25,688 bases of DNA from a virus (taxonomy: Duplodnaviria > Heunggongvirae > Uroviricota > Caudoviricetes). The DNA lies in the IMG/VR virus record IMGVR_UViG_2627853701_000015; one strand, 5' to 3'. Below are positions 1,046 through 24,823 of this stretch, piece by piece. Position numbers and translations under genes: made by a program. The notes beneath the pieces were generated by a model. The model made no database searches. It worked only from the letters and a program-made list of their open reading frames with translations, and had not been told where the DNA came from. Each line of letters starts with the position of its first letter. Position 1 is the first letter of the stretch.

Positions 1046-1575
1046 AATAATCGCCACCAACACAATGATTTTAATACATAAATTAAAATAGAAGATTTAA
1101 ACTACACACACCCCTATACACATTGGTGAAGGCGTTCGCTTTCCGCGCATTCTCAAGGCAGAAAAAACTTTTTTTGGGGGATAACTGTTCATACTACTCA
1201 TTGTGTTTTTTTTCATTAATATTCAAAAAGATATGAAATTAACGATTGATAAGAAGTGAACACTTTACTGTTCACCTTGACTGATTAATAAGTGCATAAA
1301 AACCTAATTTTTGAGCACGGAAGGTATTTGTTCCTTACCCCATTTTTTCTCTTTAGTCCAGTACAACAAAAAATGCGCCCAACAGAAAACTGTTTTGAAT
1401 TTAAATGCAATCGCTTTGTAGTGATTGTAACGTAAGTTGATTTGATGGGTGCGATTTTGTTTAGCGATAATGGTATGTTGTAAAAATCATTTCGTTGCAA
1501 TAAAATTGCATCGCTACATTTTATAGACAATATCAATTAAATTTTAATACTCATTATTAATTTTGAGGCTAACAA

Positions 1576-2532: not shown

Positions 2533-2635
2533 ACATCATCTAACAATGAATTAGATGCATTTTCCGCTGACGCCTTAGCATATAACTTTTAAATTTTATC
2601 GATATATATTTTGAGATAATTTCCTGTAGCGGATT

Positions 2636-2658
2636 TAAGACCGGCACAGCCGGTCTTA
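2636..2658. terminator. 10-bp-stem hairpin between convergent genes, possible bidirectional terminator
   Basis: TAAGACCGGC-ACA-GCCGGTCTTA perfect inverted repeat between the stop at 2532 and the alpha stop at 2665; no clear U-tract on either side. Confidence 0.35.
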
Positions 2659-2664
2659 GGTCAG

Positions 2665-4998: not shown

Positions 4999-5011
4999 TG
5001 TGCGGCCCTCC

Positions 5012-5335
5012 TTAGTGCAGCGCTGGTTTGTTGAGGTGACGGGAACAAAGTTCATCCATGACCGTCATTCCGAGCAGTGAGAGAACCGGACAGGCTTTAA
5101 GCGGCCCCGACTCCATCAGATCCGAAAGCAACGCGCAGGCAATTTCCAGCCCTCTTTGCTGCCCATGCTGGCGCAGATAGAACCCTTCCAGCTCGCGGGC
5201 TATGGCATCTTCAAGTTCAGCGAGCGTCAGGCCGGAATAACGTTCCTGATGATTGCTTAGAGCCAGCCAGGCACAGGCAACGGCACGGCGATACAGAGCG
5301 GCACGAAGTGCCAGAAGAGATTCACAGCATATCAT
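5012..5335 (-). CDS. hypothetical protein in the alpA-alpha operon
   Basis: 107-aa ORF; its ATG overlaps the upstream ORF stop (ATGA at 5333-5337); same strand as alpA and alpha. Confidence 0.45.
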
Positions 5336-5556
5336 CAGGCCACCTCCGCATTCATCAGGTCGTCATGGCAGCGTTGCACCACTCCATCCAGTTGCTCTGT
5401 CATCAGATAAATGAGGGAAACCAGTTGTTCGCATTGGGCACCTGCTGGCTTTTCATAACAGTCCTGCAGGGCTGCCATGCCAGTTACATACTCACCCACA
5501 TTGCGTAAATGTTTCAGCCTTACAACATCGTCGTAGGAAATCTCAAACTGGTTCAT
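5335..5556 (-). CDS. hypothetical protein in the alpA-alpha operon
   Basis: 73-aa ORF with ATGA start/stop overlaps at both ends (5553-5556 and 5333-5337). Confidence 0.45.
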
Positions 5557-6110
5557 AGCGTCACCTCCCCGGCAGGCAGCCGTGCAGAAAGGGAGAGTAC
5601 ATAATCTCGGACTAGCAAACGGCGCGCGGAACGCTCATCGCAGGAGACAGTGCGAAGCATACAGATGCGGGGGTGAGTGTCAGCACGGCGGATTGCGGCA
5701 AACACAAAGACATATTGCGGGTGTGACGGGGTGAGGATTGTAGCCATGATGGCAGCCTCCAATAAGTAGCGGTTATTGCTACCACCGGAAACGCCAATTT
5801 CACTGGTGGCAGCCCGAACGGGGTTGGCGTAACCGGCCTTATTGGAAACCGGCCAGCCCGAAGGCTGCCCCGCCCGGACTACCATTATCTCGATAGAACC
5901 ATGGTGTAAGCATAAACACCACAGCCCTGAAAATGGTTGTGCCTGAGCTACGACGTAAAAAAAGACGCAAGGGGCGTCAATTGTCGCCAATAAGTTATAC
6001 GGAACGCCAATTCCGGCTGCCGATTTTGCGACAGCGGAAAAACTATACCTGGAAATGACGACAGTAAGCAAGCCAGAATAAAGGTATTTAATGTATGCAG
6101 GTATCATCAT
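5553..6110 (-). CDS. hypothetical protein, uncertain
   Basis: 185-aa ORF whose start overlaps the alpA stop (ATGA at 6107-6110) and whose stop overlaps the next start; odd composition, so it could be a shorter gene or partly non-coding. Confidence 0.35.
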
Positions 6111-6367
6111 GCATCACATCCCCGCCCACGGGCGCTGATGCGGTCCGCCATCCATGCGCTGACCTCAGACTGTGCCCAGGCGACATTTTTACCGCCAAGC
6201 GGGATCTGCTTCGGAAACGCATCGCGGCTGATCAGGTCGTAAACGGTCGAACGGGACAACCCGCATAAGTGCATCACCTCAGGCAGGCGTAAAAATCGCT
6301 CATGATGGTTCGATACAGGAAATAATGGCGCAGCAGGAGCTGGCGCAGACACAGAAATATTACGCAT
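6107..6367 (-). CDS. alpA: AlpA-family phage transcriptional regulator
   Basis: 86-aa protein with '[53 protein letters not shown]', the AlpA/prophage CP4-57 regulator helix-turn-helix pattern. Confidence 0.85.
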
Positions 6368-7212
6368 TTATCTACCCTCTTTAATTTCCACAACAGTCCG
6401 GATGAATTTATCCGGGTTCAGGTAGTTCCTTATTATGTGTATATAAACCACCTGCGCACGCATTTTTTATTTAGCGTCACATATTGATTTTATGGAATTT
6501 AAAGCCCGATTAAACCATATAAAATGACATAATAAATACCATGCCTGCGGACTATAAATACAGGAGCATTAATAGGAACTACCATTCACCCAGGGTTTAC
6601 TATCCTATGGGTCATTGCACCTGATAGTGCTAACCCCACCGCCAATACAGCAAGGCAGTACAACTTCTACACGAGGCCTTGCATTGCAGGCCCCAATTTC
6701 CGGGCATATTTTTGAATCGCATCCAACTTATAAACATTGGGCCTGCATAAAAACCTTGATATTAAATAACATCACCTTAAATCGTAAAATATATCCGAAT
6801 GAATCCATAAAGAACCGGACAGATCTAGTTTTATAAAAATCAGTATGAAATGCAACACCATGGCCAGAGGCGAAAATGTTATTCCCCGGCAAAAACATGC
6901 AGTCTATTTATGTGCCTGTTGAATACTCCTGAATAAGGGTGAATAGTGGTGAGGAGCAAAAAACAAATAGCTACGAGGAATAAAAAAACCACCCATTATG
7001 AAAAAATACCATAAATAATTTTATTCCCATGTGAACAGTTATGAACAGTCGATGAATACTGCCATGCCAACCCTTCACCTTATAACCTTCTGTATTACCT
7101 ATTTTTTTTACCTAAGTGAATAGTAGTGAATAGTTAAGGTAAGTCTGAAACAGCCTTAGTTAAACGAGGCCTTTTCTGGCTAGCCAAAAGAGGTCCGGGG
7201 CGGTTCAGTCTT

Positions 7213-7230
7213 TGTCTTGTCGCTCGCACA
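7213..7230 (+). promoter_or_regulatory. TGT-N12-ACA dyad, candidate Ogr/Delta activator site of the late promoter
   Basis: TGTcttgtcgctcgcACA lies ~70-90 nt upstream of the ATG at 7301; P2/P4 late promoters carry this dyad near -55. Confidence 0.5.
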
Positions 7231-7300
7231 ATGGCGTTCAATGGCAGCTTTGTATGCATCACAGCACAATTGACACCACGACAAACCACTAGGTGCTGAC

Positions 7301-8053
7301 ATGACAATCCCAGAACAGAACAATAACCCGATCGTTGAAATTTCTATCCCTGTTTCGACGCAACAGGCGCTTGAGAAAGTGAATGCCACCAAATCTGCAT
7401 GGCTTGAAGCACGTCGTCAGCAAAAAGCGGCAGCGGATAATATTGCGACAATCCGCCAGCGCCGCGCTGAAATGGAAGCCACGACGAACGCCCTGAATGA
7501 GGAGTGGCGCACGCTATTTCGTGAAAGTCAGGGCGTAGTCTCAAAGGAAATGAAAAAACTGCGCACGGAAATTGCGCTGGGACGAGAAACGCTTGAGGAT
7601 TTTGATGAGCTGCTGGCGGCTCAGGAAAGCGAAAATGCACTTTTGCCGCAGGAGGCTGCGGAATTAGCCGGAAAGTATATCCACGCGCACGACACCCTTG
7701 TGGGTATTCGCGCAAAACAAATCTGGGAAGATTTTATGCAGTCGCATGGAAAAGCACTAATCCAGACACTAAGCCTGCTCAAATCAACAATGGGCAGGGA
7801 AGCCAGCGCAGTTGTCGGTGTGGTGCATTCAGTTAATGACCCGGACACACTGCTGAAAGATTTTATTCATAAACATATCACCAGACCGGCTCTGACTAAC
7901 GATGCGATGCCCGAACAGGACCCCGTGTTTAAACTGGCGGGAGTTGCCCCGGATTATGCGGCCCGTCTGGATTTCAGTAATAAACTCTCTCCAGCAGCTA
8001 TGCATAAAATGAAGGTTCGTCAGGAACGTGCTGAGAAGGAGAAAGCAGTATGA
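7301..8053 (+). CDS. P4 Sid-like / Psu-family late protein
   Basis: 250-aa ORF with AGGTG 5 nt before the ATG; first gene of a coupled operon ahead of the psu-like and delta-like genes; size matches Sid; assignment by position and size only. Confidence 0.5.
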   Translation: MTIPEQNNNPIVEISIPVSTQQALEKVNATKSAWLEARRQQKAAADNIATIRQRRAEMEATTNALNEEWRTLFRESQGVVSKEMKKLRTEIALGRETLEDFDELLAAQESENALLPQEAAELAGKYIHAHDTLVGIRAKQIWEDFMQSHGKALIQTLSLLKSTMGREASAVVGVVHSVNDPDTLLKDFIHKHITRPALTNDAMPEQDPVFKLAGVAPDYAARLDFSNKLSPAAMHKMKVRQERAEKEKAV

Positions 8054-8601
8054 TGGCCCGAGTCACTCCAGACCAAGCGCTTATCAGTTTTAGAAATGCC
8101 CGTATTCTGTGGGCTGGACATAGTGAGAGCCGAAAAGCCGTTGAACAACAGATAGAATCACTCCTCACTGCCATGGAAAAACCAGCAGATTATGCTCGAC
8201 AGCTCGAATTACAGCGGGAACATCTGGATGTGCTGAAATGGCAAATTAACTGTGCTGCGCGCGAATGCATTTACTCGCAGCATCAACTGATGGAGGCCTG
8301 CACAGAAGACGCTCTCAGCAATTTTATGCAGGCGAATGGAGCAGCCCTGACATCTGCACTGGCTCCGTTCCTGAAGGGGCGCGGAGGGGTTGACGTTGCG
8401 TCCCGTATATTACGCAATGCTCTGGTTCGCCAGCTGGCAATAACACCGCCTGAAATTGCCGGGGATTATCGTATGATTCTGGATGAATCCGGTGTGATGC
8501 CTGACCCCATGATGGTTCGTGATTGCCAGAGCTCTTACACCCCTGCACAACAACTGCGCTTTCAGCAACGTCTGGATTACATTAACGGCATGCAGGAGTA
8601 A
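8050..8601 (+). CDS. psu: Psu-like polarity-suppression protein
   Basis: 183 aa; 'KWQINCAAR...FMQANGAALTSALAPFLKG...TPAQQLRF' resembles P4 Psu as I recall it; ATGA-coupled to the upstream gene. Confidence 0.6.
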   Translation: MMARVTPDQALISFRNARILWAGHSESRKAVEQQIESLLTAMEKPADYARQLELQREHLDVLKWQINCAARECIYSQHQLMEACTEDALSNFMQANGAALTSALAPFLKGRGGVDVASRILRNALVRQLAITPPEIAGDYRMILDESGVMPDPMMVRDCQSSYTPAQQLRFQQRLDYINGMQE

Positions 8602-8606
8602 TATTA

Positions 8607-8879
8607 ATGGCACTTAAATGTCCCGAATGCGGTACGACGGCACACGCCAGAACCTCCGCCTATGAAGCACCATCGGTTAAACGCTCATGGTATCAGTGCC
8701 AGAATCTTGAATGTTCCTACACATTTACCGCACTGGAAAGTGTGGATACGATAATCATGAAGCCCCGGCGCAATGAACAGGAATCAGAGAAAGCACAAAT
8801 GCCGGAAAAACAACAGCAAACTCTCAATCGCTATGGCTCCGCGTCAAAGCTGTCAAGCCGTCAGCAAATTCCTGTCTGA
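8607..8879 (+). CDS. Ogr/Delta-family zinc-finger late-gene activator
   Basis: 'CPECGTTAHARTSAYEAPSVKRSWYQCQNLECSYTF' is the C-x2-C...C-x4-C Ogr/Delta zinc-finger pattern; 90 aa, a single Ogr-like unit. Confidence 0.85.
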   Translation: MALKCPECGTTAHARTSAYEAPSVKRSWYQCQNLECSYTFTALESVDTIIMKPRRNEQESEKAQMPEKQQQTLNRYGSASKLSSRQQIPV

Positions 8880-8900
8880 TTAGCAAAAAAAGCCCACGTA

Positions 8901-8926
8901 ATCCCGGTCCAGTACTGGGATTTTTT
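8901..8926 (+). terminator. rho-independent terminator after the late operon
   Basis: Hairpin TCCCGG-loop-CTGGGA followed by TTTTTT, directly after the delta-like stop. Confidence 0.5.
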
Positions 8927-9232
8927 ACGCCTTTTCCCTGGCTGGCCTGAGAGCGCATGAGTGCATGTCTATAGCGCATGAAAACGCATGATTCTCATGC
9001 ACCATTTTTGACGCGAAAGCCCTTGTGTGGTGGCTTCTGAGACGATTTGCGGAATGCATGAAAACCAGTCTGTTAAGCGAAGCGAGCAGGCGTGGGGGGC
9101 TGCGCGCGCTAAGGGGTTAGATTATAAAATATCAAACGCCGGTGAGATCCATTATTGTGGAACCACCCGAAGGAAGTGTAGAGGCGAAAGTACCCAAAAT
9201 AATTTTGCAAATTATTTAGAAATGAACTGAGC

Positions 9233-9258
9233 GCTCGAAACGAAATATAATTTCGAGC
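9233..9258. repeat. inverted repeat at the 3' end of the hotspot operon
   Basis: GCTCGAAA-N10-TTTCGAGC between the hotspot operon end (9289) and the upstream module; no U-tract, so terminator function is uncertain. Confidence 0.3.
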
Positions 9259-9288
9259 ACCCCAATTAGCAGTTATATTTTTAATGTA

Positions 9289-9855
9289 TTAAACAGGATA
9301 AAAACCAGAGCTTCCATTCTTATTTAAGTTATGGATTTTATTTGCATCATTAATTTTTATTTGGAACGTCGGACCTTTATTCTCAAGAATTACAATCTGG
9401 AAATTATAGTCCCTTTTGATTAATGCGTGATAAAATGAATCACTGAGACTGACGCTATTAACATCCGATAGAGAACCCCCTCTATCTTTATCAAAGTGCG
9501 TCACTAATGGACTATCAAGCACAACAAATCCAATGAATGGATTCCCTTTTCTTGATAAAAATTCCGCAAAGCAAATGGTAAATATAGCATGCATTACTGC
9601 ACGGGTACCTTTACCAAACATTCCTCGGCGTTTCCCATTGATATTAAAGTCATATGTATCTTCGTCAAATCGCACTTTGTTATCTTTAGAATTTTCAAAA
9701 TTTATATCATTCAAAAAGTCTTGCATCGCTATTTCTATATCATACAAATCAGCTACTGTTAAGGAGTCAAAGTCCTCGGCGGAGTATTTAAGTTCGTCAA
9801 CATCATCTTCTTTATCTTGTAATGAAGATAGAATGCTATGTTTTGTGTGATCCAT
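9289..9855 (-). CDS. ABC/SMC-like ATPase, C-terminal head segment
   Basis: 188 aa; signature-like 'FGKGTRAV', Walker-B-like 'FIGFVVLDSP', D-loop-like 'THFD'; start ATG overlaps the upstream stop (TAATG at 9853-9857); ~28% GC. Confidence 0.55.
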   Translation of the reverse strand: MDHTKHSILSSLQDKEDDVDELKYSAEDFDSLTVADLYDIEIAMQDFLNDINFENSKDNKVRFDEDTYDFNINGKRRGMFGKGTRAVMHAIFTICFAEFLSRKGNPFIGFVVLDSPLVTHFDKDRGGSLSDVNSVSLSDSFYHALIKRDYNFQIVILENKGPTFQIKINDANKIHNLNKNGSSGFYPV

Positions 9856-10445
9856 TAAAAGATTGTCTTTATATTCATAAAGTGATTCAAGAGATGAATG
9901 TATTGTTTTATATTTTTATCTTCTAACGTCTTAAAATCACTTTTTTCTGATTGATAAATTTCATTAACATCATTTTTTCTTAACATAATTAATTCATGTT
10001 CGCGAACATTAGATCCGATTGATTCAATTAATCCTTTCAGCTGGCTTTTGATTTTCAATTTTTCTGCATTACACGACAAAAAACAATCATCATATGATAT
10101 TTCATTTTCTTTTTTTTGCGGTGTATTACAGAACTCACAATAAATATCTGCAAAATTATTTAAATAGAAATTCGCCTGTGATACAACATCTATTCTTTGT
10201 AGATCTATAAAGTATTGGTCTTTAAGAAGACTAAATCTTTCAATGAGTAATGATAAGTATTTTTCCCTGTCACTGATTGAATATAATTCATCACTTAACT
10301 CTTTTAATAATTGCTTCTTATCATCAAGTGCATCAACAATACCTTTCAATATATCTTTCGATGATTCAATATCTTGCTCTACTTTCTCAAGTTCTCTTGA
10401 AACAATGACTTGATCATATTCAGGATAAATTAATTGCGCTTTCAA
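9855..10445 (-). CDS. coiled-coil segment with Cys4 cluster; probably the central part of the same ATPase
   Basis: Charged heptad-like repeats; C-x2-C ... C-x3-C cluster (CEFC ... CFLSC) mid-segment; no in-frame ATG or RBS, and the frame continues upstream to a single TAA at 10476-10478 that ends the Walker A ORF. Confidence 0.45.
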   Translation of the reverse strand: MKAQLIYPEYDQVIVSRELEKVEQDIESSKDILKGIVDALDDKKQLLKELSDELYSISDREKYLSLLIERFSLLKDQYFIDLQRIDVVSQANFYLNNFADIYCEFCNTPQKKENEISYDDCFLSCNAEKLKIKSQLKGLIESIGSNVREHELIMLRKNDVNEIYQSEKSDFKTLEDKNIKQYIHLLNHFMNIKTIF

Positions 10446-10475
10446 TTCCTCATAAATATTTGCAATTTGATTTTT

Positions 10476-11108
10476 TTAAAAATATCTTGCTTTTTTATTT
10501 GGTTTTTCTGCTAAGGAGTTAGTATCATCTCTCTGAGTTAAAAGGAATTTAAATTCAGACTTTCTTTTTGTCTCCTCGCTAGGAATATCAGAAAGAATTA
10601 ACGACTTCTCAGTTAACACTCTTAATTCATCAATACAAAAAAATTCAAAAACATTATTAAGATTAAATTTATGAAGAGTATTACTTAAGTTTGTTCTTAC
10701 TTTAGCCTCTTTGAAATTCAACCTACCATAAAAGTATGATGAAAAACTCTTTTTAGACGAAGCACTTTTGGAAAAAACCATCAACAGATTAGCTTCACTA
10801 ACATTTTCAATACTCGAATCATATAATCTGTAATGGGCGCTATCCTGAAGAGACCTCTCAATTGTCATTACCCTACCTTGAAAATTAAATTCCAGATAGG
10901 CTAAATCATAACCTTGAGCATGATCGATATCTTTATTTTTTAGTTTTTCACTCCCTAATAAATATCGAATCAAATAATATATGTATGTTTTTCCAGAGTC
11001 AGAACCACCATATAAAATAGTCAATTTAGAACCAAATTCAATTATAGCATCTAATTTATTGAATCCGGTTACCTTTATTTTTCTGAACGTAAAAAAATTG
11101 TCATTCAT
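10476..11108 (-). CDS. ABC/SMC-like ATPase, N-terminal head segment (Walker A)
   Basis: 'FRKIKVTGFNKLDAIIEFGSKLTILYGGSDSGKTYIYYLIRYLLG' is the N-terminal strand plus P-loop pattern of RecF/SMC/Rad50-type ATPases; ATG at 11108 overlaps the upstream stop (ATGAATGA). Confidence 0.6.
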   Translation of the reverse strand: MNDNFFTFRKIKVTGFNKLDAIIEFGSKLTILYGGSDSGKTYIYYLIRYLLGSEKLKNKDIDHAQGYDLAYLEFNFQGRVMTIERSLQDSAHYRLYDSSIENVSEANLLMVFSKSASSKKSFSSYFYGRLNFKEAKVRTNLSNTLHKFNLNNVFEFFCIDELRVLTEKSLILSDIPSEETKRKSEFKFLLTQRDDTNSLAEKPNKKARYF

Positions 11109-11559
11109 AATTAAATTCCATATCATATTTGCCAATTTTATTTTTTATAATTGATTGCAACTGCTCATCAGGAATATCACTATATAACTTAACCACCAAA
11201 TTTATATTATGCTCCATCTGCGCAACATATTCATTATGTAGAGAATTTGTAAATGCATATGTTTTTTCAGAAGCTTTATATACAAAACCACGATGTGTAT
11301 AAATTTTTGAGGCTAGTTCATAGCCTTGCAACAAAGCCAATGATTCTAAAACAATCTCTCGTTTTAGGGCTAACTGAGCATCTCTACGGGGTATTGGAGG
11401 ATGAAGACTAATCTCTTCAGGTAAAAAATCCTTAAGATTTACTAAAATAAAATCAAAACAAATAAGCCGTTCAAGGCTTAATGAAGAAGGATAAATAGCG
11501 ACGAGCACTTTCGCCATTCGACATGCCACTTCTAAACTTGAATTATAAATTCTAACCAT
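11101..11559 (-). CDS. hypothetical small protein, middle gene of the hotspot operon
   Basis: 152 aa from the ATG at 11559, which overlaps the upstream stop (TAATG) and has GGTGAG just upstream; the ORF track extends it to a TTG at 11574. Confidence 0.5.
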   Translation of the reverse strand: MVRIYNSSLEVACRMAKVLVAIYPSSLSLERLICFDFILVNLKDFLPEEISLHPPIPRRDAQLALKREIVLESLALLQGYELASKIYTHRGFVYKASEKTYAFTNSLHNEYVAQMEHNINLVVKLYSDIPDEQLQSIIKNKIGKYDMEFNYE

Positions 11560-12176
11560 TATCTCACCGTCCAAATTACTTCACCATCATTAACCAAATG
11601 ATGGCATATTCCTTTTTTATCATTTGCTTCACATATTTTTGATAGTACTGAATGTGCAATTGGTGTCAGAACAGCCTGCTTCAAGACTGCATTACACCTA
11701 ATAAATGCATAATTATGGTCTTCATAAAAGACGGGTTCAATTGAAGATGAAATGTAACATTTCAATGCTTTGAATACATCATCTTTAAATACTTCGCGGA
11801 CAAAAACCTCAAGCGAAGATGCAAAATAAAAATCATTTCTACTATTATTAAAGTGTCGTCTGTATGGATCATCAAGCTCTAAGAAAGAACTATAAGTTTT
11901 ATTTCCATGCTCTGAATAGGCTTGAAGCAGTGCATTAACATATACAGACTCTTTTTTTGAATTGTATGTTGGAATTTCATTTGGAGGGATTCTCACGACA
12001 TACAGCTCGTTAAAGTACTTAAAATAAAGGTGTGTATTTGCAATATCATTTAAAATCAATGATAAGGGTAGAGAGTAAAAAATACTAAAATCAAAATCCT
12101 CAATATATTTTTTTATTTCATCATCTAATGGAATATCAATCTTTTTAGTTATTTTTTTGAAATTGCTGAATCCCAT
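11559..12176 (-). CDS. hypothetical protein; possibly the C-terminal part of the nuclease gene
   Basis: 205-aa ORF with no RBS, overlapping the upstream ORF by 28 nt across an A7 tract (12152-12158); a 1-nt change there would fuse the two frames into ~335 aa. Confidence 0.45.
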   Translation of the reverse strand: MGFSNFKKITKKIDIPLDDEIKKYIEDFDFSIFYSLPLSLILNDIANTHLYFKYFNELYVVRIPPNEIPTYNSKKESVYVNALLQAYSEHGNKTYSSFLELDDPYRRHFNNSRNDFYFASSLEVFVREVFKDDVFKALKCYISSSIEPVFYEDHNYAFIRCNAVLKQAVLTPIAHSVLSKICEANDKKGICHHLVNDGEVIWTVR

Positions 12177-12565
12177 GAATCAAGGACTGCTTTTTTAAGC
12201 TCGTTTTTATTTTTCAATAAATTAGAAAATGTAGTAGATAAATCATAGGGTGCCACAAAAAAGTACTTCTGAGGGATGGGATAATCACCATTCAGAGTAA
12301 AATAGATAAGTTTTCCAAACTCAACTACAACATCAGAGAACCCTAAACTTTTTTTGTACAGTTTGCATTGATAATTATCCCAAGAATAACCTTCTACGTT
12401 AGGATCCGATTTATATCCAACAACGTCTCTACCTTTATCTCCAGCTCCTCCCAAACGTTCGCTCCACGGGTAATCATCTGATTTACAGACAATAAGCCAA
12501 TCATGGACAAATACCTCCCATTGTTCATCATCCCATGTCAATATTTCCGAAAGTGGTTGAGACAC
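12149..12565 (-). CDS. Mrr-like PD-(D/E)xK restriction-endonuclease-fold domain protein
   Basis: 'WEVFVHDWL...GGAGDKGRDVVGY...YQCKLYKK' matches the Mrr catalytic-domain pattern (G-x-G-D-x-G-x-D then Q/E-x-K); GTG start with AAGGAG 7 nt upstream, 3 nt after the int stop. Confidence 0.55.
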   Translation of the reverse strand: MSQPLSEILTWDDEQWEVFVHDWLIVCKSDDYPWSERLGGAGDKGRDVVGYKSDPNVEGYSWDNYQCKLYKKSLGFSDVVVEFGKLIYFTLNGDYPIPQKYFFVAPYDLSTTFSNLLKNKNELKKAVLDSWDSAISKK

Positions 12566-12568
12566 AAA

Positions 12569-13657
12569 TTAACTCCTTTTTAGTCTTTCAAATATCAAAT
12601 TACTGTACCAGTCCATCATAGACTTCCTTCCACTAAAATATTGAGCATGGTTATAAGTCCCCCTAATAGAATTTTTATCTACATGAGCCAACTGGATTTC
12701 AATCCAAGCACTCTCAAAACCTTGCTCATGCAGGATTGTAGAAAGGGTATGACGAAAACCATGTCCAGTGACTTTTCCTCCATACCCAATACGCTTAATG
12801 GCTTGATTTATACTCGCTTCGCTCATTGGCCTATTCGGATCGTTCCGCCCTGGAAAAACATAACGATAGTTCCCTGTCATGATCTTGAGTTCATTGAGTA
12901 AATCTACCGCTTGAGATGATAAGGGCACAAGATGTGGCCTACGCATTTTCATCCTTTCAGCAGGAATTTCCCAAATAGCGTTATCCAGATCAAATTCTTG
13001 CCATAATGCCGCGCGTAATTCGATGGTTCTCACACCCGTAATCATCAGTAATTTCGTGGCTATCTGGACAAGCTTACTCCCGGAGTAACCCTCTAAGGCA
13101 CGTAGAAAATCAGGTATCTCATCAGCTTTTAGGAATGGGAAATGATTGGATTGGTGTACTTCGAGAGCGCTGGAGAGATCAGCCGCAGGATTGTACTCCG
13201 CCCTACCCGTTGCAATTGCGTAGCGAAACACCTCTCCCACAGGCCTTGTTCCGACATAAGGAAAAATGTCGTTCTTAAACGCTTCCATGATGTCTGATGC
13301 ATATCCCGCCGACCATTTAGCAGATTTAAGTTGATGCCACTCTCTGGCTATCTTTTCGAAGGCGTTCTCTGACTCTGTTTGCATAGCTAGCTTTTGCTCT
13401 TTTCGAACCTCACTAGGGTTCTTTCCTTCTGCCACAAGTTTTCGAGCTTCATCACGACGGGAACGAGCATCGGCAAGGGTGATCGTTGGGTAAACACCAA
13501 GCGAGATCATTTTGGGTTTGCCGGCATAGCGATAGCGGAACCGCCAACTCTTGCTTCCATTAGGTTCTATAAGTAATGACAACCCTAGCCCATCTCCAAA
13601 TGTATAGGCTTTAGCTTCAGGCTTAGCGCGGCGAATCTGCATATCGTTTAAAGGCAT
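12569..13657 (-). CDS. int: P4-type tyrosine integrase
   Basis: N-terminus 'AKPEAKAYTFGDGLGLSLLIEPNGSKSWRFRY', catalytic region 'GHGFRHTLST...AHVDKNSIRGTYNHAQY' (R..H-x-x-R...Y); directly downstream of a tRNA 3' end. Start set at the internal ATG (MPLND...); the ORF track extends to 13708. Confidence 0.9.
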   Translation of the reverse strand: MPLNDMQIRRAKPEAKAYTFGDGLGLSLLIEPNGSKSWRFRYRYAGKPKMISLGVYPTITLADARSRRDEARKLVAEGKNPSEVRKEQKLAMQTESENAFEKIAREWHQLKSAKWSAGYASDIMEAFKNDIFPYVGTRPVGEVFRYAIATGRAEYNPAADLSSALEVHQSNHFPFLKADEIPDFLRALEGYSGSKLVQIATKLLMITGVRTIELRAALWQEFDLDNAIWEIPAERMKMRRPHLVPLSSQAVDLLNELKIMTGNYRYVFPGRNDPNRPMSEASINQAIKRIGYGGKVTGHGFRHTLSTILHEQGFESAWIEIQLAHVDKNSIRGTYNHAQYFSGRKSMMDWYSNLIFERLKRS

Positions 13658-13709
13658 GTGTATAGGAATCCAGACCGAACAGGAACATATACACAATCCT
13701 ATACACATT

Positions 13710-13819
13710 CAGTACCGGATTCTACTGGATGGTTACGGACTACTATGGACTTAAAAGAATAAAAAATGTTATAAATCAGAGATTTTATGGACTAATACGG
13801 ACGTTTGAGGAAGTTGAGA
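13710..13819. repeat. att arm region with short direct repeats
   Basis: Repeated GGACTAC/TATGGACT/TACGGAC words between the int start and the tRNA core, as expected for integrase arm-type sites. Confidence 0.35.
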
Positions 13820-13865
13820 TGGTGCCGATAATAGGAGTCGAACCTACGACCTTCGCATTACGAAT
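13820..13865 (-). other. 3' 46 nt of a tRNA-Thr(CGU) gene: att core, not an intact tRNA
   Basis: Reverse complement TTCGTAATGCGAAGGTCGTAGGTTCGACTCCTATTATCGGCACCA has half the anticodon stem, CGU anticodon loop, T-arm GGTTCGACTCC, acceptor 3' strand and CCA; sequence 5' of it (>13865) is not tRNA. Confidence 0.7.
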
Positions 13866-14212
13866 TATAAGAATCCGCTTCTAATTCAAAGCATTACCCC
13901 ATCAACACTGCGCTCACACGTCCCACCACATCAAAACATGTAAAGCCTTGCAAGCCATTGCGAGGCCTTATGTGTCTCAGTTTTGTCCCACCTTGTATTA
14001 CGACTTGCATAGCCAATGAAGATAAACGTGACGACAAACGGCGCAGCAGTCTTCTTTTCTTTCACGACTTCTCCAGCATGCATACCTTTCTGCCATGACT
14101 GAAGTGAATGCCTGTTATGAGCAAGGATTGGCCCAGATGAATCGCCCTGGACTGTTGCGATCGTGAAGCCATAGACTGGGCCGCAAGCACGGGAGGTTAC
14201 GATAAAGCGACA

Positions 14213-14578
14213 GTGCAGGATGTCATGTTAGGAGCGATAGAAAAACGCTTTGGCGATAAAGTACCGGAACAGTCCATCCAGTGGCTGACAGATAACGGTT
14301 CAGCGTATAGAGCGCATGAAACACGGCAGTTCGCCAGAGAGTTGAATCTGGAGCCCTGCACAACGGCAATCAGCAGTCCTCAGAGTAATGGAATTGCAGA
14401 AAGGTTCGTGAAAACGATGAAGGAAGACTACATCGCGTTCATGCCGAAACCGAATGTAAGAACGGCATTGCATAATCTTGCAGTGGCGATCGAACATTAC
14501 AATGAAAACCATCCGCACAGTGCGTTGGGTTATCGCTCTCCGCGAGAATATCGACGTCAGCGGGTAACGTTAACTTAA
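14213..14578 (+). pseudogene. transposase/integrase-core C-terminal fragment (IS remnant)
   Basis: '[10 protein letters not shown]...[11 protein letters not shown]...[12 protein letters not shown]' is the C-terminal DDE-transposase pattern; upstream frames are broken, so only a ~120-aa remnant is readable. Confidence 0.55.
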
Positions 14579-14619
14579 GATACCCCCCCTGTCTGGAAAT
14601 AAGGGGGCAAGAACAATGA

Positions 14620-15363
14620 TCAGATTCCCTGGTGAGTAAGAATTTTACTTTCTGAACTCCTCTGAGAGTATTGACTTGGAGAAACACCAAAATAACGTCT
14701 AAATACATAAGTAAAGTATGAGACACTGGCATAACCACAGACCTTAGCTACTTTACTAATAGGATAACAACGAGTGCTGAGTAAATATTCAGCCATTTGC
14801 ATCCTCTCATCAAGTATGATCTTACTGAATGATACCCCCTCTTCTTTCAATTTCCTCTTTAGTAAACTTTCGCTGAGATATAATCTTGATGATATATCCT
14901 TAAGACGCCATGGTGCAGATAAATCCGTATGAATAATCGTTTTAACTTTAGCCCCTGTGCTTTTCAAACATCCAAACAGAAATACTCCAAATTGTTTTTC
15001 AGAAGAAAATGCAGAGAGACATGTAAAAGCAATAGACTCATCAAAAATTTCTATGTATTCAGCACAGTGATTAGCCCAACTAATTAATCCTTTAATTAAA
15101 CTGAAGTCAGCAAAGTTTATTTTTAAATAAGATGGATATTCCCTACAATCAGAAATATCCCTTAAGTTATTAGCTTTCAAATAGCGACTAATAAACTCAG
15201 CGCCAAAATCCGCCACTATCACTCTTTCAGGATATGTCAGGAAAAAATCTCTAGAGCTAGAGTCGACAAGTACAGATGAACCTCTCTCCAGAAACACACT
15301 CTCTTTTCCGAAATAAACATCAAAGGACTCCAAAATCAATATAACTGAACATGTAGTTGCCAT
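14620..15363 (-). CDS. AraC-family transcriptional regulator
   Basis: 247 aa with C-terminal AraC-type HTH 'ISKVAKVCGYASVSYFTYVFRRYFGVSPSQY'; AT-rich (~33% GC). Confidence 0.75.
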   Translation of the reverse strand: MATTCSVILILESFDVYFGKESVFLERGSSVLVDSSSRDFFLTYPERVIVADFGAEFISRYLKANNLRDISDCREYPSYLKINFADFSLIKGLISWANHCAEYIEIFDESIAFTCLSAFSSEKQFGVFLFGCLKSTGAKVKTIIHTDLSAPWRLKDISSRLYLSESLLKRKLKEEGVSFSKIILDERMQMAEYLLSTRCYPISKVAKVCGYASVSYFTYVFRRYFGVSPSQYSQRSSESKILTHQGI

Positions 15364-15945
15364 ATCATCCCCCCAATTTAACTGAAACCAGGATGAAGTA
15401 TATGTATATAAAGTTCACTTTGCCAAACTTCAGTATAAAAAACCACTAAAAATAGGGTGTGATAAAAAATACCGTAACAATAAAGCAAAGGATTATAAAT
15501 TCCGTTACAGTTACAAATGATACTCAAGAAACAATTCCTTAGGAAAAACTTATTTACAGCCAATAAGTAAGACACTTATATGATATCAAGTTTTCATAAA
15601 ACATAACTAGGCTAAATAGCTGCGCCTAATACCGCTACACTTTTGCCAGCCCATGTTTGCCTCCGGGTATTGACCCCTTCTCTACGCAACTTCAGTTCCC
15701 ACCACCAACTTTGCGGCAGCTTTGTAGGATCAATGTCTAAAAGAATAATGGTGACCGATAAGAAAACGACTGAATAACTGCAGATTTTCGCTCAAAACCT
15801 TCCTGTCAGATCCATAGCGAATCAAGTGCTGAATGTCACAGTATCGAACAGAAAACAGTGACGATCTAACCCTTCAAGAATATTCTACGATTGTTCTGTT
15901 TAGGAAAAGCAAGACGGGAAGTCGGGAGATAAGTCATTGATAAAG

Positions 15946-16007
15946 TGGCGGAGAGAGGGGGATTTGAACCCCCGGTAGAGTTGCCCCTACTCCGGTTTTC
16001 GAGACCG
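15946..16007 (-). other. 3' 62 nt of a tRNA-Ser gene: att-type remnant, not an intact tRNA
   Basis: Reverse complement CGGTCTCGAAAACCGGAGTAGGGGCAACTCTACCGGGGGTTCAAATCCCCCTCTCTCCGCCA matches the anticodon-to-CCA part of an E. coli tRNA-Ser as I recall it; the 5' part is absent. Confidence 0.65.
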
Positions 16008-16090
16008 ACCCGATCATCAAACGAAACATAAAATTAGCTCACATTATGAGGAAAGGTATCTTTTTGCGCTATGTAAATTCAAAGGGTTAG

Positions 16091-16960
<870 letters not shown>

Positions 16961-17017: not shown

Positions 17018-17572
17018 TCATTTATCTCCGGCCGGAAACTTCTTATACAGTGTCGATACACCAACATCATAGATGATCGCTACCTTCTGGCGAGGAATTC
17101 CTGCTGCAATTAATCGTCCGGCCTGCGCCCATTGTTCTGGTGTAAGTTTGGGACGACGTCCACCAATTCGTCCCTGTGCGCGAGCAGCTTCCAGTCCAGC
17201 TTTTGTTCGTTCAACAATCAGTTCTCGTTCCATTTCAGCCAGGGCCCCCATCACATGAAAGAAAAAGCGCCCCATTGGGGTACTGGTATCAATAGCATCC
17301 GTCAGGCTGCGAAAATTAACGCCACGTTCGCGCAACTCCTCAACCAGAATGACCAGATGCCGCATACTGCGCCCCAGCCGATCCAGTTTCCAGACAACCA
17401 GAGTGTCACCTGCCGATAATGTCCTGAGCAGTTTTTTCAGTCCCGGCCTTTCGGACTTTGTACCGCTTATCTTGTCTTCAAAAATCAGCTCGCATCCTGC
17501 ACAGTTCAGCGCATTACGTTGTAGATCTGTGTTCTGGTCATTTGTTGACACACGTACATAGCCAATAAGCAT
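17018..17572 (-). CDS. pin: Pin/Hin/Gin-family serine DNA invertase
   Basis: 'MLIGYVRVSTNDQNTDLQRNAL...VVWKLDRLGRSM...GRFFFHVMGALAEMERELI' is the serine-recombinase catalytic domain with C-terminal HTH; AGGGAG 8 nt before the ATG at 17572. Confidence 0.9.
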   Translation of the reverse strand: MLIGYVRVSTNDQNTDLQRNALNCAGCELIFEDKISGTKSERPGLKKLLRTLSAGDTLVVWKLDRLGRSMRHLVILVEELRERGVNFRSLTDAIDTSTPMGRFFFHVMGALAEMERELIVERTKAGLEAARAQGRIGGRRPKLTPEQWAQAGRLIAAGIPRQKVAIIYDVGVSTLYKKFPAGDK

Positions 17573-17626
17573 GGTAGATCTCCCTGACAAAAGCAGGAAT
17601 GATGCCATTTGCTCGTTATTTCTGCA

Positions 17627-17652
17627 TTTTCATAAACGTTGGTTTGGGAGAA
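17627..17652. repeat. invertase crossover site, left
   Basis: TTTTCATAAACGTTGGTTTGGGAGAA is the inverted partner of the site at 19485-19510. Confidence 0.65.
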
Positions 17653-18012
17653 GCGGCAAAACGGGATGTGGGGACAGGGGAAAATCAGATACCGGACATG
17701 GCCTCTTTTGCCAGTGGTAATGGTTGGATGAAATTACCCAACGGGAAAATCCTGCAATATGGTCGTGGTGCGGTTACGCCGACATTATCGACGCAAACAA
17801 TGAGAATTACATTCAGCATCCCTTTCCCCAAAAAAGCGGACTGCGCCATGCTTACTCATTCTGGTGATGGCGGTGCGCCTTTAGGCGCTGGGCGAGGGTT
17901 CGTGATGACTGCAGAAGGCCCAACGTTAACCGGCTTTAATTCTGCTTACAGAACGTCATCAACCAGCGACACGGTATCGATGAATTACAGTTGGTGGGCT
18001 GTTGGTGAGTAA
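17653..18012 (+). other. silent alternative tail-fibre C-terminal cassette
   Basis: Reading frame inside the invertible segment, opposite orientation to the expressed fibre gene, followed by its own assembly gene; would be fused to the constant part after inversion. Confidence 0.5.
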
Positions 18013-18023
18013 TTTTATTCAGG

Positions 18024-18476
18024 GTGATTTATATGGACGAATATGTTTATAGCGCAAGGCATAATGCTTTTTTCCCTGTGGATATGATTGATAAATATAA
18101 ATCAGAGGGATGGGATTTATCAGACGCTAAGGAAGTAAATCAAAATATTATCAGTGAGTTTATGGCTGAACCGCCACAAGGAAAAATCCGTATTGCCGGA
18201 GATGATGGGCTGCCTGCGTGGGCAGATATTCCTCCACCCACGCATGAAGAGCTTATTGAAATTACTGAATCAGAAAGACAGCTACTAATTAACCAGGCCA
18301 ACGAATACATGAACAGTAAGCAATGGCCCGGTAAAGCCGCTATTGGTCGTCTGAAAGGTGAGGAACTGGCGCAATATAATTTGTGGCTGGATTATCTGGA
18401 CGCACTGGAACTGGTCGATACTTCCGGTGCGCCAGATATTGAATGGCCTACGCCTCCGGCAGTTCAGGCCAGATGA
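18024..18476 (+). CDS. tail fibre assembly protein (alternative cassette)
   Basis: 150 aa; C-terminal 'APDIEWPTPP' is shared with the opposite-strand paralogue; sits directly after the silent fibre cassette. Confidence 0.65.
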   Translation: MIYMDEYVYSARHNAFFPVDMIDKYKSEGWDLSDAKEVNQNIISEFMAEPPQGKIRIAGDDGLPAWADIPPPTHEELIEITESERQLLINQANEYMNSKQWPGKAAIGRLKGEELAQYNLWLDYLDALELVDTSGAPDIEWPTPPAVQAR

Positions 18477-19041
18477 CATCCGGCGCGGTGCTGGTATCTG
18501 TTGCCGTCACCGCGTCAATGTAATCCAGCACGGCGTTAAGTCGGGTTGTTTCTGCCTGAGTCAGTTTCCGTCCGGCCTGTAACTTCAGCTGAATCAGACT
18601 AATGGAAGCCATTGCTGCATCAATCAGTGATTGGCGCTGTGCTTCTGCCGCGTCTACTGCGGCACTGTGTTGTGCCTCAGTGTCTGTCACCCATTTCTCA
18701 CCATCCCATTTATCGTATGGCGTTAACGGTGAAATCGTGACATAACCGTCTTTGATGGCACCGATATAATCCACTGTAACAGCTGCGCCATTTTCGATTG
18801 AGTAAACAGTCTCATTGCGATGGTCTTCTTCATGGCTCCATCCCTTACCTGTAAATACTGCCACTCTTCCCGGAATGTTTTCGCCAGGGTCAATACCAGT
18901 GGAACAGGCGGGCATACTTACGCCAGTATTAATATATTCATCAGACCAGCCCGTATACTCAGATGTTTCAGCATCATAATAAAAACAACGCATATCGCCC
19001 GGCACTGTAGCCAGCCCATTTTCATCAAAAACAGGTTTCAT
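18448..19041 (-). CDS. tail fibre assembly protein
   Basis: 197 aa; start overlaps the fibre stop (ATGA at 19041); C-terminal 'APDVIWPELP' paralogous to the other cassette. Confidence 0.7.
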   Translation of the reverse strand: MKPVFDENGLATVPGDMRCFYYDAETSEYTGWSDEYINTGVSMPACSTGIDPGENIPGRVAVFTGKGWSHEEDHRNETVYSIENGAAVTVDYIGAIKDGYVTISPLTPYDKWDGEKWVTDTEAQHSAAVDAAEAQRQSLIDAAMASISLIQLKLQAGRKLTQAETTRLNAVLDYIDAVTATDTSTAPDVIWPELPEA

Positions 19042-19835
19042 TATTTAGCCCTCACCAGAAAGTTAAATGCAATATTTCGCGGTCTGACTGCAACAAAATT
19101 CACACCATCACCCACAGAGTTACTGGTGAAATTAAATCGTGAAAATCCTGGCTGATTTCCGGCGATGCCATCATGAAAGTTAATTGCGTGTCCCGCACCT
19201 TCGCCTATATTCCCGGCAAACTGAGAAAAGTTTGTAGCTGCCTGCCAGCTTAATAATTCGCGACCACCGTCTGCACCTCGCCCGTCATCCCAGATACGAA
19301 TGAAATCACCGCGGGCTTCAGGTAATACCAGCGAAGGAAACACTTTCGCCAGCACAGGATAATCAGTGGCAGAGAATTTCGCGCCGTTGAACTTCAAAAA
19401 CACCATACAGGACCAGCTGTCGATTACAGTATTTGGCATTGCAGCGGACGGCCAGAAGAACGGAACGCCAATAGCTGGAGCACCTTCTCCCAAACCAAGG
19501 TTTTGAAGAGCCGTTTTCACCGTGCCGTCCGATTTGATATCGCCAAACGGATTCTTGCGGCTCAGGTATTCAACAGCAAACCCCGATCCCAGCAATTCAA
19601 CAAAACCGGGCAGATCACCATTATCAAGCACATCCCGTTGCGTTTTATCACTTACAAACTGGGCCAGAGCTGCAGCAATAAAGCTGGCCTGCCGAATAAC
19701 CTTATTGACTTGCGCACTGGATGCTTTCCCTGCTGTAAATCCGGATATAAGCGCAGGCAACGCTTCCCATTCCTCCTGCGACATAACATTGGCATTTCGA
19801 TCAGTTGCAAACGCTTTAAAGTCATTTTTCGCCAT
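19041..19835 (-). CDS. side tail fibre protein, constant N-terminus joined to the currently expressed variable C-terminus
   Basis: 265 aa from 'MAKNDFKAF...'; the crossover site at 19485-19510 lies inside the gene, so the C-terminal ~150 aa belong to the invertible segment. Confidence 0.7.
19485..19510. repeat. invertase crossover site, right
   Basis: TTCTCCCAAACCAAGGTTTTGAAGAG; its reverse complement matches the site at 17627-17652 at ~21 of 26 positions. Confidence 0.65.
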
Positions 19836-20146
19836 CAGAGTAATACTCCCCATGCCCCTACATCAAAACCACTGATGAATTCGTTATCCATATCAAAACC
19901 AAAAAATTTAGAGCCTTCCGATGGAGTTTCCACCGAAGGTGTTTCAATGCCCCCCGCCCATACCCCGGCGGCTTTTACTGTTAGATACCCCTGTTTAATT
20001 GCCGCAATTAACTCACGCGATACATCTGAAATATCAGTATCAGGAAAGACCCAGACCGATATCGTCATGTCCTGGTTATCGATGTTGGCGATCCGACGCA
20101 TCTGCTCACGGTCAAAGTTAACCATCTGTGCGGCGATGTTTTTCAT
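19835..20146 (-). pseudogene. lambda P-type gene truncated after ~21 codons and fused to the 3' end of a tail-module gene
   Basis: 'MKNIAAQMVNFDREQMRRIAN' matches the lambda P N-terminus as I recall it, with ATGA overlap to O; the rest is unrelated and ends at the fibre start. Confidence 0.6.
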
Positions 20147-22628: not shown

Positions 22629-22983
22629 ATGAAGAAAGCAGCAATTTTAATTGATGCGGGTTTTTTCATGCAGCGTGTTCATGCTACGCATCGTAAACAC
22701 TTCGCCGAGCATGAACTGACTGCGCAATGCATAATGAAAGTAATATGGTCAATGGTTCTTTCCCATCTTAATGGAAAACGTCAATCACAAGAACGTAGGG
22801 AACCGCTTGAGCTTTATAGAATTTACTTCTATGACTGTCCACCACTCGACATTCAAACACGCCTTCCACTTCCTGAGCCTGGCAATAAGACGCCTGGTCG
22901 CAAGAATTTCAAACTCGAAAAATCATATATTCTGAGAACGGAGCTGCATGAAGAGTTAAGAAAAACTCGAAAAACAGCCATAA
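22629..22983 (+). pseudogene. gene at the rexA position downstream of cI, interrupted by IS629
   Basis: 118 native codons run into the IS left end at 22984; joining across the IS gives ~153 aa; no resemblance to RexA that I can see. Confidence 0.5.
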
Positions 22984-23037
22984 TGAACCGCCCCGGAAAT
23001 CCTGGAGACTAAACTCCCTGAGAAAGAGGTAAACAGG

Positions 23038-23364
23038 ATGACTAAAAATACTCGTTTTTCCCCCGAAGTCCGTCAGCGGGCGATTCGTATGGTTCTGGAA
23101 AGTCAGGATGAATATGACTCACAGTGGGCGGCAATTTGTTCCATTGCCCCAAAGATTGGCTGTACGCCGGAGACTCTGCGTGTCTGGGTTCGCCAGCATG
23201 AGCGGGATACCGGGGGCGGTGATGGTGGGCTCACCAGCGCTGAACGTCAGCGTCTGAAAGAGCTGGAACGTGAAAATCGTGAACTGCGCCGCAGTAACGA
23301 TATCCTTCGCCAGGCTTCCGCTTATTTTGCGAAGGCGGAGTTCGACCGCCTCTGGAAAAAATGA
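23038..23364 (+). CDS. IS629 OrfA (HTH/leucine-zipper transposase subunit)
   Basis: 108 aa ending at the A6 slippery tract 'GGAAAAAATGA' typical of the IS3-family -1 frameshift. Confidence 0.85.
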
Positions 23365-24251
23365 TGCCACTGCTGGATAAGCTGCGTGAGCAGTACGGGG
23401 TCGGACCGGTATGCAGCGAACTGCATATTGCCCCGTCAACGTATTACCATTGTCAGCAACAGCGACATCATCCGGATAAACGCAGTGCCCGTGCGCAGCA
23501 CGACGACTGGCTGAAGAGAGAGATACAGCGCGTATACGATGAAAATCATCAGGTGTACGGTGTGCGTAAAGTCTGGCGTCAGTTGTTACGGGAAGGAATC
23601 AGGGTGGCCAGATGTACAGTGGCACGTCTCATGGCGGTTATGGGACTTGCCGGTGTTCTCCGGGGTAAAAAGGTCCGTACGACCATCAGCCGGAAAGCCG
23701 TTGCCGCAGGCGACCGCGTAAACCGTCAGTTCGTGGCAGAACGACCTGACCAGCTGTGGGTGGCTGATTTTACTTACGTCAGCACATGGCAGGGCTTCGT
23801 CTATGTGGCGTTTATCATTGATGTGTTTGCCGGATACATCGTGGGGTGGCGGGTCTCATCGTCTATGGAAACGACATTCGTGCTGGATGCGCTGGAGCAG
23901 GCGTTGTGGGCCCGTCGTCCGTCTGGCACCATCCATCACAGCGATAAAGGCTCTCAGTATGTGTCACTGGCCTATACGGAGCGACTAAAAGAAGCCGGAT
24001 TACTGGCATCAACAGGGAGTACAGGCGACTCGTATGACAACGCGATGGCTGAGAGCATCAATGGTCTTTACAAAGCGGAGGTAATACACCGTAAGAGCTG
24101 GAAAAACCGTGCAGAAGTGGAACTGGCCACACTAACGTGGGTGGACTGGTATAACAATCGACGATTGCTGGGAAGGCTGGGCCATACTCCTCCGGCAGAA
24201 GCAGAAAAAGCTTATTATGCTTCCATCGGAAACGATGATCTGGCAGCCTGA
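23361..24251 (+). CDS. IS629 OrfB (DDE transposase catalytic subunit)
   Basis: 296 aa; DDE region 'WVADFTYV...HHSDKGSQY...DNAMAES'; overlaps orfA in the -1 frame. Confidence 0.85.
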
Positions 24252-24423
24252 GTTCACAGATAAAACACTCTCCAGGAAACCCGGGGCGGTTCATAACCAA
24301 TTGTATTTATTTTAAAATTAATAGGTGCAACTCACTAAACAACGCAATTCTGATCTCTCGATCACCTCCCAAGCCACACAACCCTGCAAAAAATAAATCT
24401 ATATAAAAAACATACAGATAACC

Positions 24424-24709: not shown

Positions 24710-24823
24710 ATGGATGCACAAACACGCCGCCGCGAACGTCGCGCAGAGAAACAGGCTCAATGGAAAGCAGATCGGATTCTGGCTTCAACATTTCGCAGGA
24801 ATGCAACTAAGAGACATTACTGA
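24710..24823 (+). pseudogene. N antiterminator truncated after 20 codons by a deletion junction
   Basis: '[20 protein letters not shown]' matches the lambda N N-terminus; from 24771 the DNA is integrase-derived and the N frame stops after 17 unrelated codons. Confidence 0.7.

Follow-up and report, generated by a model that had tools for sequence, protein, structure and literature searches.

In lambda bio and lambda gal, which are specialised transducing phages, bacterial DNA contiguous with a prophage–chromosome junction is carried in the phage genome, on the side of the b region. P4-like satellites residing at tRNA genes are bounded by short repeats of the tRNA 3' terminus and encode an integrase on the tRNA side, along with a primase, psu, a sid-like gene, ogr, and a C4 RNA. 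Two elements can also occupy a single tRNA/attachment (att) locus with a partial copy of the core between them, as described for Sp10 beside Rac in K-12 (PMC2669165), and the Shigella phages SfI, SfIV, and SfV, which integrate into the tRNA-Thr gene thrW, have a 46-bp phage attachment site (attP) in common (PMC3851460). Here, we analyzed a stretch of 25,688 nucleotides recorded as a caudoviricete virus in IMG/VR (IMGVR_UViG_2627853701_000015; hereafter the window), in which the 3' parts of two different tRNA genes, thrW and the tRNA-Ser gene serU, lie about 2 kb apart. The window falls at the thrW locus of Escherichia coli O157:H7, of which the prophages Sp1 and Sp2 have been named as co-occupants (PMC8190617), both being reported as degraded and non-circularising, with no circular Sp1 detected in strain Sakai (PMC2669165).

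The tandem of Sp1 and Sp2 at thrW, the two prophages themselves, and the regulator PatE, whose gene lies between the two tRNA pieces, are already known. From our analysis, it seems highly probable that the two pieces are products of tyrosine-integrase recombination with different histories, the thrW piece being the junction between the two tandem prophages and the serU piece a relic of a prophage–chromosome junction (attR) that is carried as phage cargo. In the literature that could be searched, we found neither a serU attR relic nor any connection of one with patE described; the relic is thus apparently undescribed and would provide a new example of host DNA captured by a phage at an att junction.

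Two Integrases at One tRNA 3' End

Positions 13820–13865 (minus strand) are an exact copy of the 3'-terminal 46 nt of thrW, and positions 15946–16007 (minus strand) of the 3'-terminal 62 nt of serU, a tRNA-Ser gene with anticodon CGA (100% identity in both cases, by prefix matching against the intact thrW of EDL933 and the intact serU of K-12). Exact matches of 46 and 62 nt cannot have arisen by chance within 25.7 kb. The initial annotation of the window, made from its letters without database searches, had described a Thr and a Ser tRNA 3' fragment in the same orientation, each followed on its 5' side by unrelated DNA; both the fragments and this unrelated DNA are there, and the limits that it gave, 13820 and 16007, are correct to the nucleotide. 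Neither piece is an intact tRNA: ARAGORN returned no tRNA across the whole window and Rfam none at the gathering score, and the partial-mode search that had been advised, with relaxed Rfam thresholds, yielded just a sub-threshold, tRNA-Sec-like partial match over the serU piece. The latter spans from 4 nt 5' of the anticodon loop to the CCA end, when the thrW core begins, by our reading of the sequence, at the final base of the 5' strand of the anticodon stem. Such a start is the expected layout for integrases that cross over in the anticodon loop. A third and shorter thrW core, missed in the initial annotation, lies at 1027–1042 (minus strand): it holds 16 of the final 17 nt of thrW, with one C absent, reads TGGTGC-GATAATAGGA, and adjoins the native downstream flank of thrW, whose sequence TTGATTTAAA precedes it. 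This distal attachment site of the P4-like prophage is identical in E. coli O55:H7 CB9615.

More than 270 complete E. coli O157:H7 genomes match the region with 100% identity at their thrW locus. In EDL933, the order of features is proB, proA, tRNA-Thr, a truncated site-specific integrase gene, a degraded lambdoid prophage (with cI, cro, cII, damaged replication genes, tail-fibre genes, pin, a gene for a GIY-YIG protein, an AraC-family gene, and an insertion sequence [IS] remnant), a tyrosine integrase gene, P4-like genes, and chromosomal LysR-family genes. The two prophages are the known Sp1/CP-933H, a lambdoid remnant that extends here from 13866 to the end of the window, and Sp2/CP-933I, a P4-like satellite at 1043–13819 (RefSeq annotation of EDL933; Rfam; PMC2669165). 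An intact tRNA-Thr gene had been proposed to lie downstream of the truncated integrase, with the 5' half of the tRNA displaced beyond the window. A search of the flanking genome located it: in TW14359 and EC4115, two genomes with the same IS629/IS1203 copy as the window, it starts 15 nt past the window's last base and adjoins the truncated integrase. The map therefore reads chromosome, 17-nt core, Sp2, 46-nt core, Sp1, thrW. The other side of the 46-mer leads directly into the P4-like integrase, and tandem integration at thrW, as initially supposed, is borne out by this joint, by the third core, and by the intact thrW just outside the window. The two elements stand in tandem, and each integrase has a core of its own length, 46 or 17 nt, within a single tRNA 3' end.

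On the Sp1 side, the 46-mer is the attR core of a thrW phage of the SfI/SfII/SfIV/SfV type, because four observations coincide: the exact core, an SfIV-like arm, an integrase remnant of that type, and the adjacent intact thrW. Indeed, positions 13820–13990 are 98.2% identical to the attP region of SfIV, and the N-terminally truncated integrase of Sp1 (24714–25688, plus strand) is 99.7% identical to the Int of SfII and SfIV (residues 19–324 of the open reading frame) and 98% to that of SfV. The P arm of the thrW-type attP (13866–14141, plus strand) bears GTCCCAC repeats and a sib-like hairpin. Up to about 14124, it matches, at about 95% identity, the attR arm found in other strains whose thrW is occupied by a lambdoid prophage alone. 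Integrases of this type cross over in the anticodon loop and bring in a new 3' part of the tRNA, and the last 17 nt of the 46-mer double as the integrase-side core of the satellite. Sp1 thus shares with the Shigella phages its core, arm, integrase, and target, thrW beside proA. It differs from them in being degraded, with an integrase that lacks its N-terminus and with its morphogenesis genes deleted, and in having patE and the serU relic in place of gtr genes.

Two further features of the P arm may be mentioned. An 82-bp part of it (13908–13989) is 97.6% identical to a sequence at the DLP12 end in K-12 and about 87% identical to attP-adjacent DNA in phage 21 and many lambda-like phages. The hairpin at 13945–13966 (plus strand) is placed like the sib retroregulator of lambda, downstream of int across att.

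The left element had been taken for a P4-type satellite, and its content confirms it. Sp2 has the P4-type gene set: an alpha-type primase, an icd-like gene, psu, a sid-like gene, ogr/delta, and candidate AT-rich defence cargo (RefSeq annotation of EDL933), together with two RNAs of a P4-like immunity region detected with Rfam on the minus strand, the C4 antisense RNA (5802–5889, 84 bits) and isrK (5958–6035, 72 bits). Its integrase gene (12569–13708, minus strand) stands on the tRNA side of the element, and its end repeats are 17 nt within 13820–13836 and 16 of these 17 nt at 1027–1042. Unlike in other P4-like satellites at tRNA genes, the integrase-side core lies on a 46-nt fragment instead of an intact tRNA, and the distal core is one base short. 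In comparison with Sp10 and Rac, the integrases of Sp1 and Sp2 differ from each other, and their cores are nested in the same tRNA 3' end. Both prophages would now be immobile.

The initial annotation considered that this map implies the arrival of the lambdoid after the satellite. It does not, for either order yields the same final map, but the proposed order is modestly favored by O55:H7 CB9615. In this strain, Sp2 is the same, many of its proteins and both its junctions, distal and proximal, being identical, but the space between Sp2 and thrW is occupied by a different, intact 49-kb lambdoid, whose arm diverges from that of Sp1 right after the same 46-mer. Because the comparison needs the fewest events if Sp2 was resident, the balance tilts somewhat towards a resident Sp2, with lambdoids coming and going at the reconstituted thrW. 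The reverse order, in which the lambdoid came first and the P4-like satellite later targeted its attR, retains a substantial if less than even probability. Integration of Sp10 into the attR of Rac was demonstrated experimentally (PMC2669165), different satellites lie distal to related lambdoids in other lineages (O112ab:H8; strain EC19), and Sp1-like prophages occur alone at thrW in strains 90-1 and 254D-1; what this order accommodates less easily is a second lambdoid P arm in CB9615 against the same 46-mer and the same Sp2 junctions.

The 1-nt deletion in the leftmost core was considered as a marker of this order and rejected, as it is found in loci of every configuration. The deleted form, TGGTGC-GAT, occurs in O157:H7, O55:H7, 90-1, and 254D-1, with two flank haplotypes, in lambdoid-only as well as satellite-containing loci (window, 1027–1042; locus L001, 7635–7650; L016 from CB9615, 30488–30503; L009 from 90-1, 3490–3505; L014, 7585–7600). 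Were the satellite to excise, the attR left with the lambdoid alone would again have the deletion, so that the marker cannot order the events; it is either an old shared marker or a recurrent loss.

The serU Piece and Its Bacterial Flank

The serU piece has bacterial DNA on one side and phage DNA on the other. On its tRNA-3' side lies a 278-bp segment (15668–15945, minus strand) that corresponds to the native E. coli spacer directly 3' of serU, in the yodB–serU intergenic region; taken together, this flank and the piece (15668–16007) match the native serU locus at 96–98% in 5,422 of 5,426 complete E. coli genomes, including K-12. On its tRNA-5' side, positions 16008–16960 (plus strand), which include the gene for a GIY-YIG (LEM-3-like) protein at 16136–16960, are identical to the serU-adjacent arm of true serU prophages, such as that of strain Q5. 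Past the spacer follow a 55-bp IS630-family end, at a TA, the upstream region of patE, patE, and an IS3 remnant.

To test whether the GIY-YIG arm is, as predicted, that of a genuine serU phage, we built a chimeric query in which the uninterrupted native spacer is joined to the serU piece and arm of the window. It is matched end to end, at 96–98%, in five genomes (Q5, GF130, MB15, RMDEC332, and PM4). The serU locus of Q5 reads zinT, spacer, 62-mer, GIY-YIG gene, then the tail and baseplate genes of an Sp1-like phage, and its spacer has the single-nucleotide polymorphisms (SNPs) that separate the window's copy from O157's own serU spacer. The geometry is the same in Sp14/CP-933U, the serU prophage of O157, where an intact serU is followed 27 nt on by the integrase gene, then by the phage, its tail fibres, cargo (tccP, espJ), a 61-nt serU piece, the spacer, and yodB; the phage side of the window mirrors this order with tail fibres, pin, the GIY-YIG gene, the serU piece, and the spacer.

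Because a native spacer lies on one side, the arm of true serU phages on the other, and the SNPs are those of Q5, the sequence comparisons indicate that the serU piece is an attR with its host flank from a serU lysogen of a Q5-like strain and that it was not made at this locus. The piece sits at thrW, 12 kb from thrW's own integrase, and neither a partner attL nor a serU-type integrase was found in the same element; since the true serU of O157 lies elsewhere, it is a relic rather than an active junction. The initial suggestion that the lambdoid had brought its own att core came close to this. It was incomplete in that the core is part of a relic attR that still has 278 bp of the bacterial serU flank attached, the whole lying within a larger cassette.

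Could the 278 bp be an ordinary phage attP arm, and the DNA downstream of serU the remains of an ancient phage? The 3' part of the tRNA is indeed found in phage attP sites, and tRNA-proximal phage relics are common in E. coli. Yet, in a true serU lysogen, the DNA 3' of the reconstituted serU is an integrase gene, at 27 nt, which is unlike the spacer, and the spacer is on the bacterial side of attR in lysogens and present in the 5,422 genomes irrespective of serU occupancy, which makes this alternative very improbable. It is likewise scarcely credible that a chromosomal rearrangement within O157, by recombination between the serU and the thrW prophages, moved a serU junction to thrW. Recombination between prophages is common in O157 (PMC2669165), and O157:H7 has in Sp14/CP-933U a serU lambdoid with a serU attR. 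However, O157 retains an intact native serU locus that has an attR of its own and the whole flank, the flank haplotype of the window is that of Q5-like strains and unlike O157's own, and the same cassette is found at the lambda bacterial attachment site (attB) and in free phages.

The interval between the two tRNA pieces had been described as an AT-rich islet of about 33% GC with a transposase remnant and an AraC-family gene. Both are present, but the AT-richness is confined to the AraC-family gene (35% GC) and the region upstream of it (30%); the IS remnant is at 50%, the serU flank at 41%, and the whole interval at 40.6%. From left to right, it comprises the 3' remnant of an ISEc48-like IS3-family element (14142–14619, plus strand; C-terminus of orfB, with rve/rve_3 domains at 14144–14578 and 96–97% identity to ISEc48); the AraC-family gene (14620–15363, minus strand; 247 aa); its upstream region (15364–15612, minus strand), with a promoter-like site at 15426–15397 that is a consensus match only; and a 55-bp terminal remnant of an IS630-family, ISEc33-like element (15613–15667) which, by sequence comparison, cuts the serU flank at a TA. 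Across the islet, a promoter scan gave counts no better than those of shuffled sequence.

By its position, the AraC-family gene is patE, as it is the sole regulator of that type in CP-933H, and z0321 is listed as a "putative regulator (prophage CP-933H), O-island 8" that is RpoS-dependent (PMC2907692). PatE is reported to be encoded by z0321 on O-island 8, to activate the gad/hdeAB acid-resistance genes, and to repress genes of the locus of enterocyte effacement (PMC10877973). Protein-cluster names record it just as "AraC family transcriptional regulator." In its low GC content and its place at the cargo end of a lambdoid, the gene resembles those of PatE, PsrA, and PsrB, the AraC-family regulators from prophages of enterohaemorrhagic E. 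coli.

That two different tRNA 3' pieces of the same orientation bracket DNA of partly deviant composition had suggested nested integrations, with an AraC/transposase element inserted in place at a serU-like core, the islet being then a third element. This we find highly implausible. There is a single serU piece, without any serU-type integrase in the window; the sole transposase is the truncated IS3 remnant; the tRNA-3' side of the serU piece is native bacterial spacer and not the end of an element; and the whole block occurs with the same limits in free phage genomes, between the tail-fibre assembly gene and attP. The islet is the distal cargo (b-region) end of Sp1 and not a separate insertion.

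Spread and Probable Capture of the Cassette

The IS3 remnant, patE, the IS630 scar, the 278-bp serU spacer, and the 62-mer form a 1.87-kb cassette (14142–16008) that recurs, with the same limits and 99% identity, in the free phage genomes ev099, mEp332, and PhiR70_1. There, it stands between the tail-fibre assembly gene (tfa) and attP-int-xis, that is, in the b region. The cassette is also present in prophages at the lambda attB beside ybhB (strains PCP06022 and MLI023K2) and in the thrW lambdoid of O112ab:H8 and other lineages; overall, we found it in 642 of the 5,426 genomes and in 34 IMG/VR viral contigs, among which its left and right contexts reassort. The junction between IS630 scar and serU flank had no match in a scan of bacterial genomes taking one genome per species. 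In 18 of the 32 IMG/VR contigs that could be evaluated, the 62 nt are intact, when 13 have point mutations, mostly in the T-loop with one in the anticodon, and 1 is rearranged. Judging from this pattern, the serU piece behaves as an unselected, decaying relic; patE would be the working cargo.

How would such a junction have entered phages? On our proposal, an Sp1-like phage would once have sat at serU in another E. coli and would have left it by imprecise excision of the lambda bio type, taking attR and the adjacent host DNA along. The phage would later have gained a different int/att module by lambdoid mosaic recombination, so that the cassette would now be carried in the b region, between tail-fibre genes and attP/int, of lambdoids that use other attachment sites. 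The outcome resembles lambda bio and lambda gal in the contiguity of bacterial DNA with a prophage–chromosome junction on the b-region side. It differs from them in that the captured piece is a non-coding spacer of just 278 bp, that the int/att module is now another one, and that the capture would be ancient and widespread, by a mechanism that we infer.

Several points weigh against the explanation as a whole. The source state, a cassette beside an intact serU, is absent among the 5,426 genomes searched with a chimeric query for it. The carriers of today have complete int and xis genes, and the loss of int expected from an event of the lambda bio type is not visible. The left edge of the cassette (14142, within the IS3 remnant) is constant in all contexts, and the proposal does not account for its joining to phage DNA. 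Moreover, the same cassette is joined to at least two unrelated arms of genuine serU phages, one of the GIY-YIG type and one Sp14-like, with the switch exactly at the core, which requires a further exchange, either homologous or site-specific. Finally, either order of arrival of Sp1 and Sp2 fits the map.

It is conceivable, though somewhat unlikely, that attR and its flank entered the phage by recombination and not by imprecise excision: through an IS-mediated deletion or fusion at serU, or through recombination of the 340-bp flank-plus-core with a resident prophage, the arms being swapped later by homologous exchange. IS remnants do bound the non-phage part, an IS630 scar at the end of the flank and an IS3 remnant at the opposite end of the cassette; the contexts of the cassette reassort freely on both sides among the 34 viral contigs; and the 1.87 kb that the copies share would amply suffice for homologous exchange. 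The source configuration was not found for this route either. Flank SNPs do not localise the crossover of the arm swap, since Q5-like native flanks have those of the cassette over the tRNA-proximal 200 nt.

Beyond the excision from serU that we favor, the relic might itself have served as a portable docking site, at which the integrases of serU phages (e.g., that of Sp14/CP-933U in the same cell) would recombine at the anticodon-loop crossover. This possibility is consistent with the two serU-phage arms that switch exactly at the core. In strain 90-1, moreover, what remains of the GIY-YIG arm starts at the anticodon loop, where it joins a b-region hairpin similar to a core half-site. However, these data are equally well explained by homologous recombination within the 340 bp to 1.87 kb that are shared, and the decaying serU sequence of 14 of the 32 copies speaks against a site kept in use, such that we regard docking as distinctly unlikely. 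If true, it would let the patE cassette pass between lambdoids with different tails and attachment specificities.

The hairpin of 90-1 belongs to a non-coding segment of the b region, a hairpin followed by a T run, that is common to lambda, HK97, HK106, and Stx phages (5815–6011 in the 90-1 locus; 24162–24353 in lambda; next to the sib site in HK97). In 90-1, this conserved segment ends exactly where the serU-type arm starts, at the anticodon-loop motif TTTCGAG, and, from the sequence, this end point may be a boundary that recurs between mosaics or a secondary att-like site.

If the relic has the origin proposed here, a serU prophage–chromosome junction with its bacterial flank was fixed as cargo of lambda-like phages and is now present in about 12% of complete E. 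coli genomes, at several attachment sites. It would be the natural footprint of a capture akin to specialised transduction, followed by a switch of integration module, and would date the entry of patE into phages to a serU lysogen. For annotation, it means that an integration boundary cannot be assumed wherever a prophage contains a tRNA 3' fragment, and that tools which call boundaries from tRNA repeats could wrongly split Sp1 at the serU relic.

Other Features of the Two Prophages

An IS629/IS1203 copy lies inside Sp1 at 22981–24295 (plus strand), between a hypothetical gene and the truncated integrase gene; it has an ALIL frameshift pseudoknot, is absent from EDL933, and is present in genomes of the TW14359/EC4115 kind. 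In other O157 strains (Xuzhou21, PNUSAE151637, and others), a further IS1203 copy is found in the islet, near window position 14309. At 17018–19853, a Pin-type invertase gene stands beside tail-fibre and tail-fibre-assembly genes of opposite orientations, an arrangement that looks like an invertible host-range segment of the e14/SfV type. Truncated replication genes directly abut this segment and mark the large internal deletion of Sp1.

In Sp2, an in-frame deletion at 13231/13232 has removed 93 bp (31 codons) from the integrase gene in comparison with EDL933; Pfam reports the central integrase domain as split, and RefSeq annotates partial-domain proteins in several strains. Just inside this gene, positions 9289–12565 (minus strand) form an AT-rich block of 28–34% GC which, in EDL933, encodes proteins of an ABC-three-component system and an AAA ATPase, candidate anti-phage defence cargo of the satellite's variable region.

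Lastly, at the distal end of the CB9615 lambdoid (13655–14236 of locus L016), genes for type III secretion system effectors (NleG, EspW, EspM2, NleB) surround two partial genes, one for tail-fibre assembly and one for a site-specific integrase, which look like another leftover of an earlier int/att module in the cargo region.

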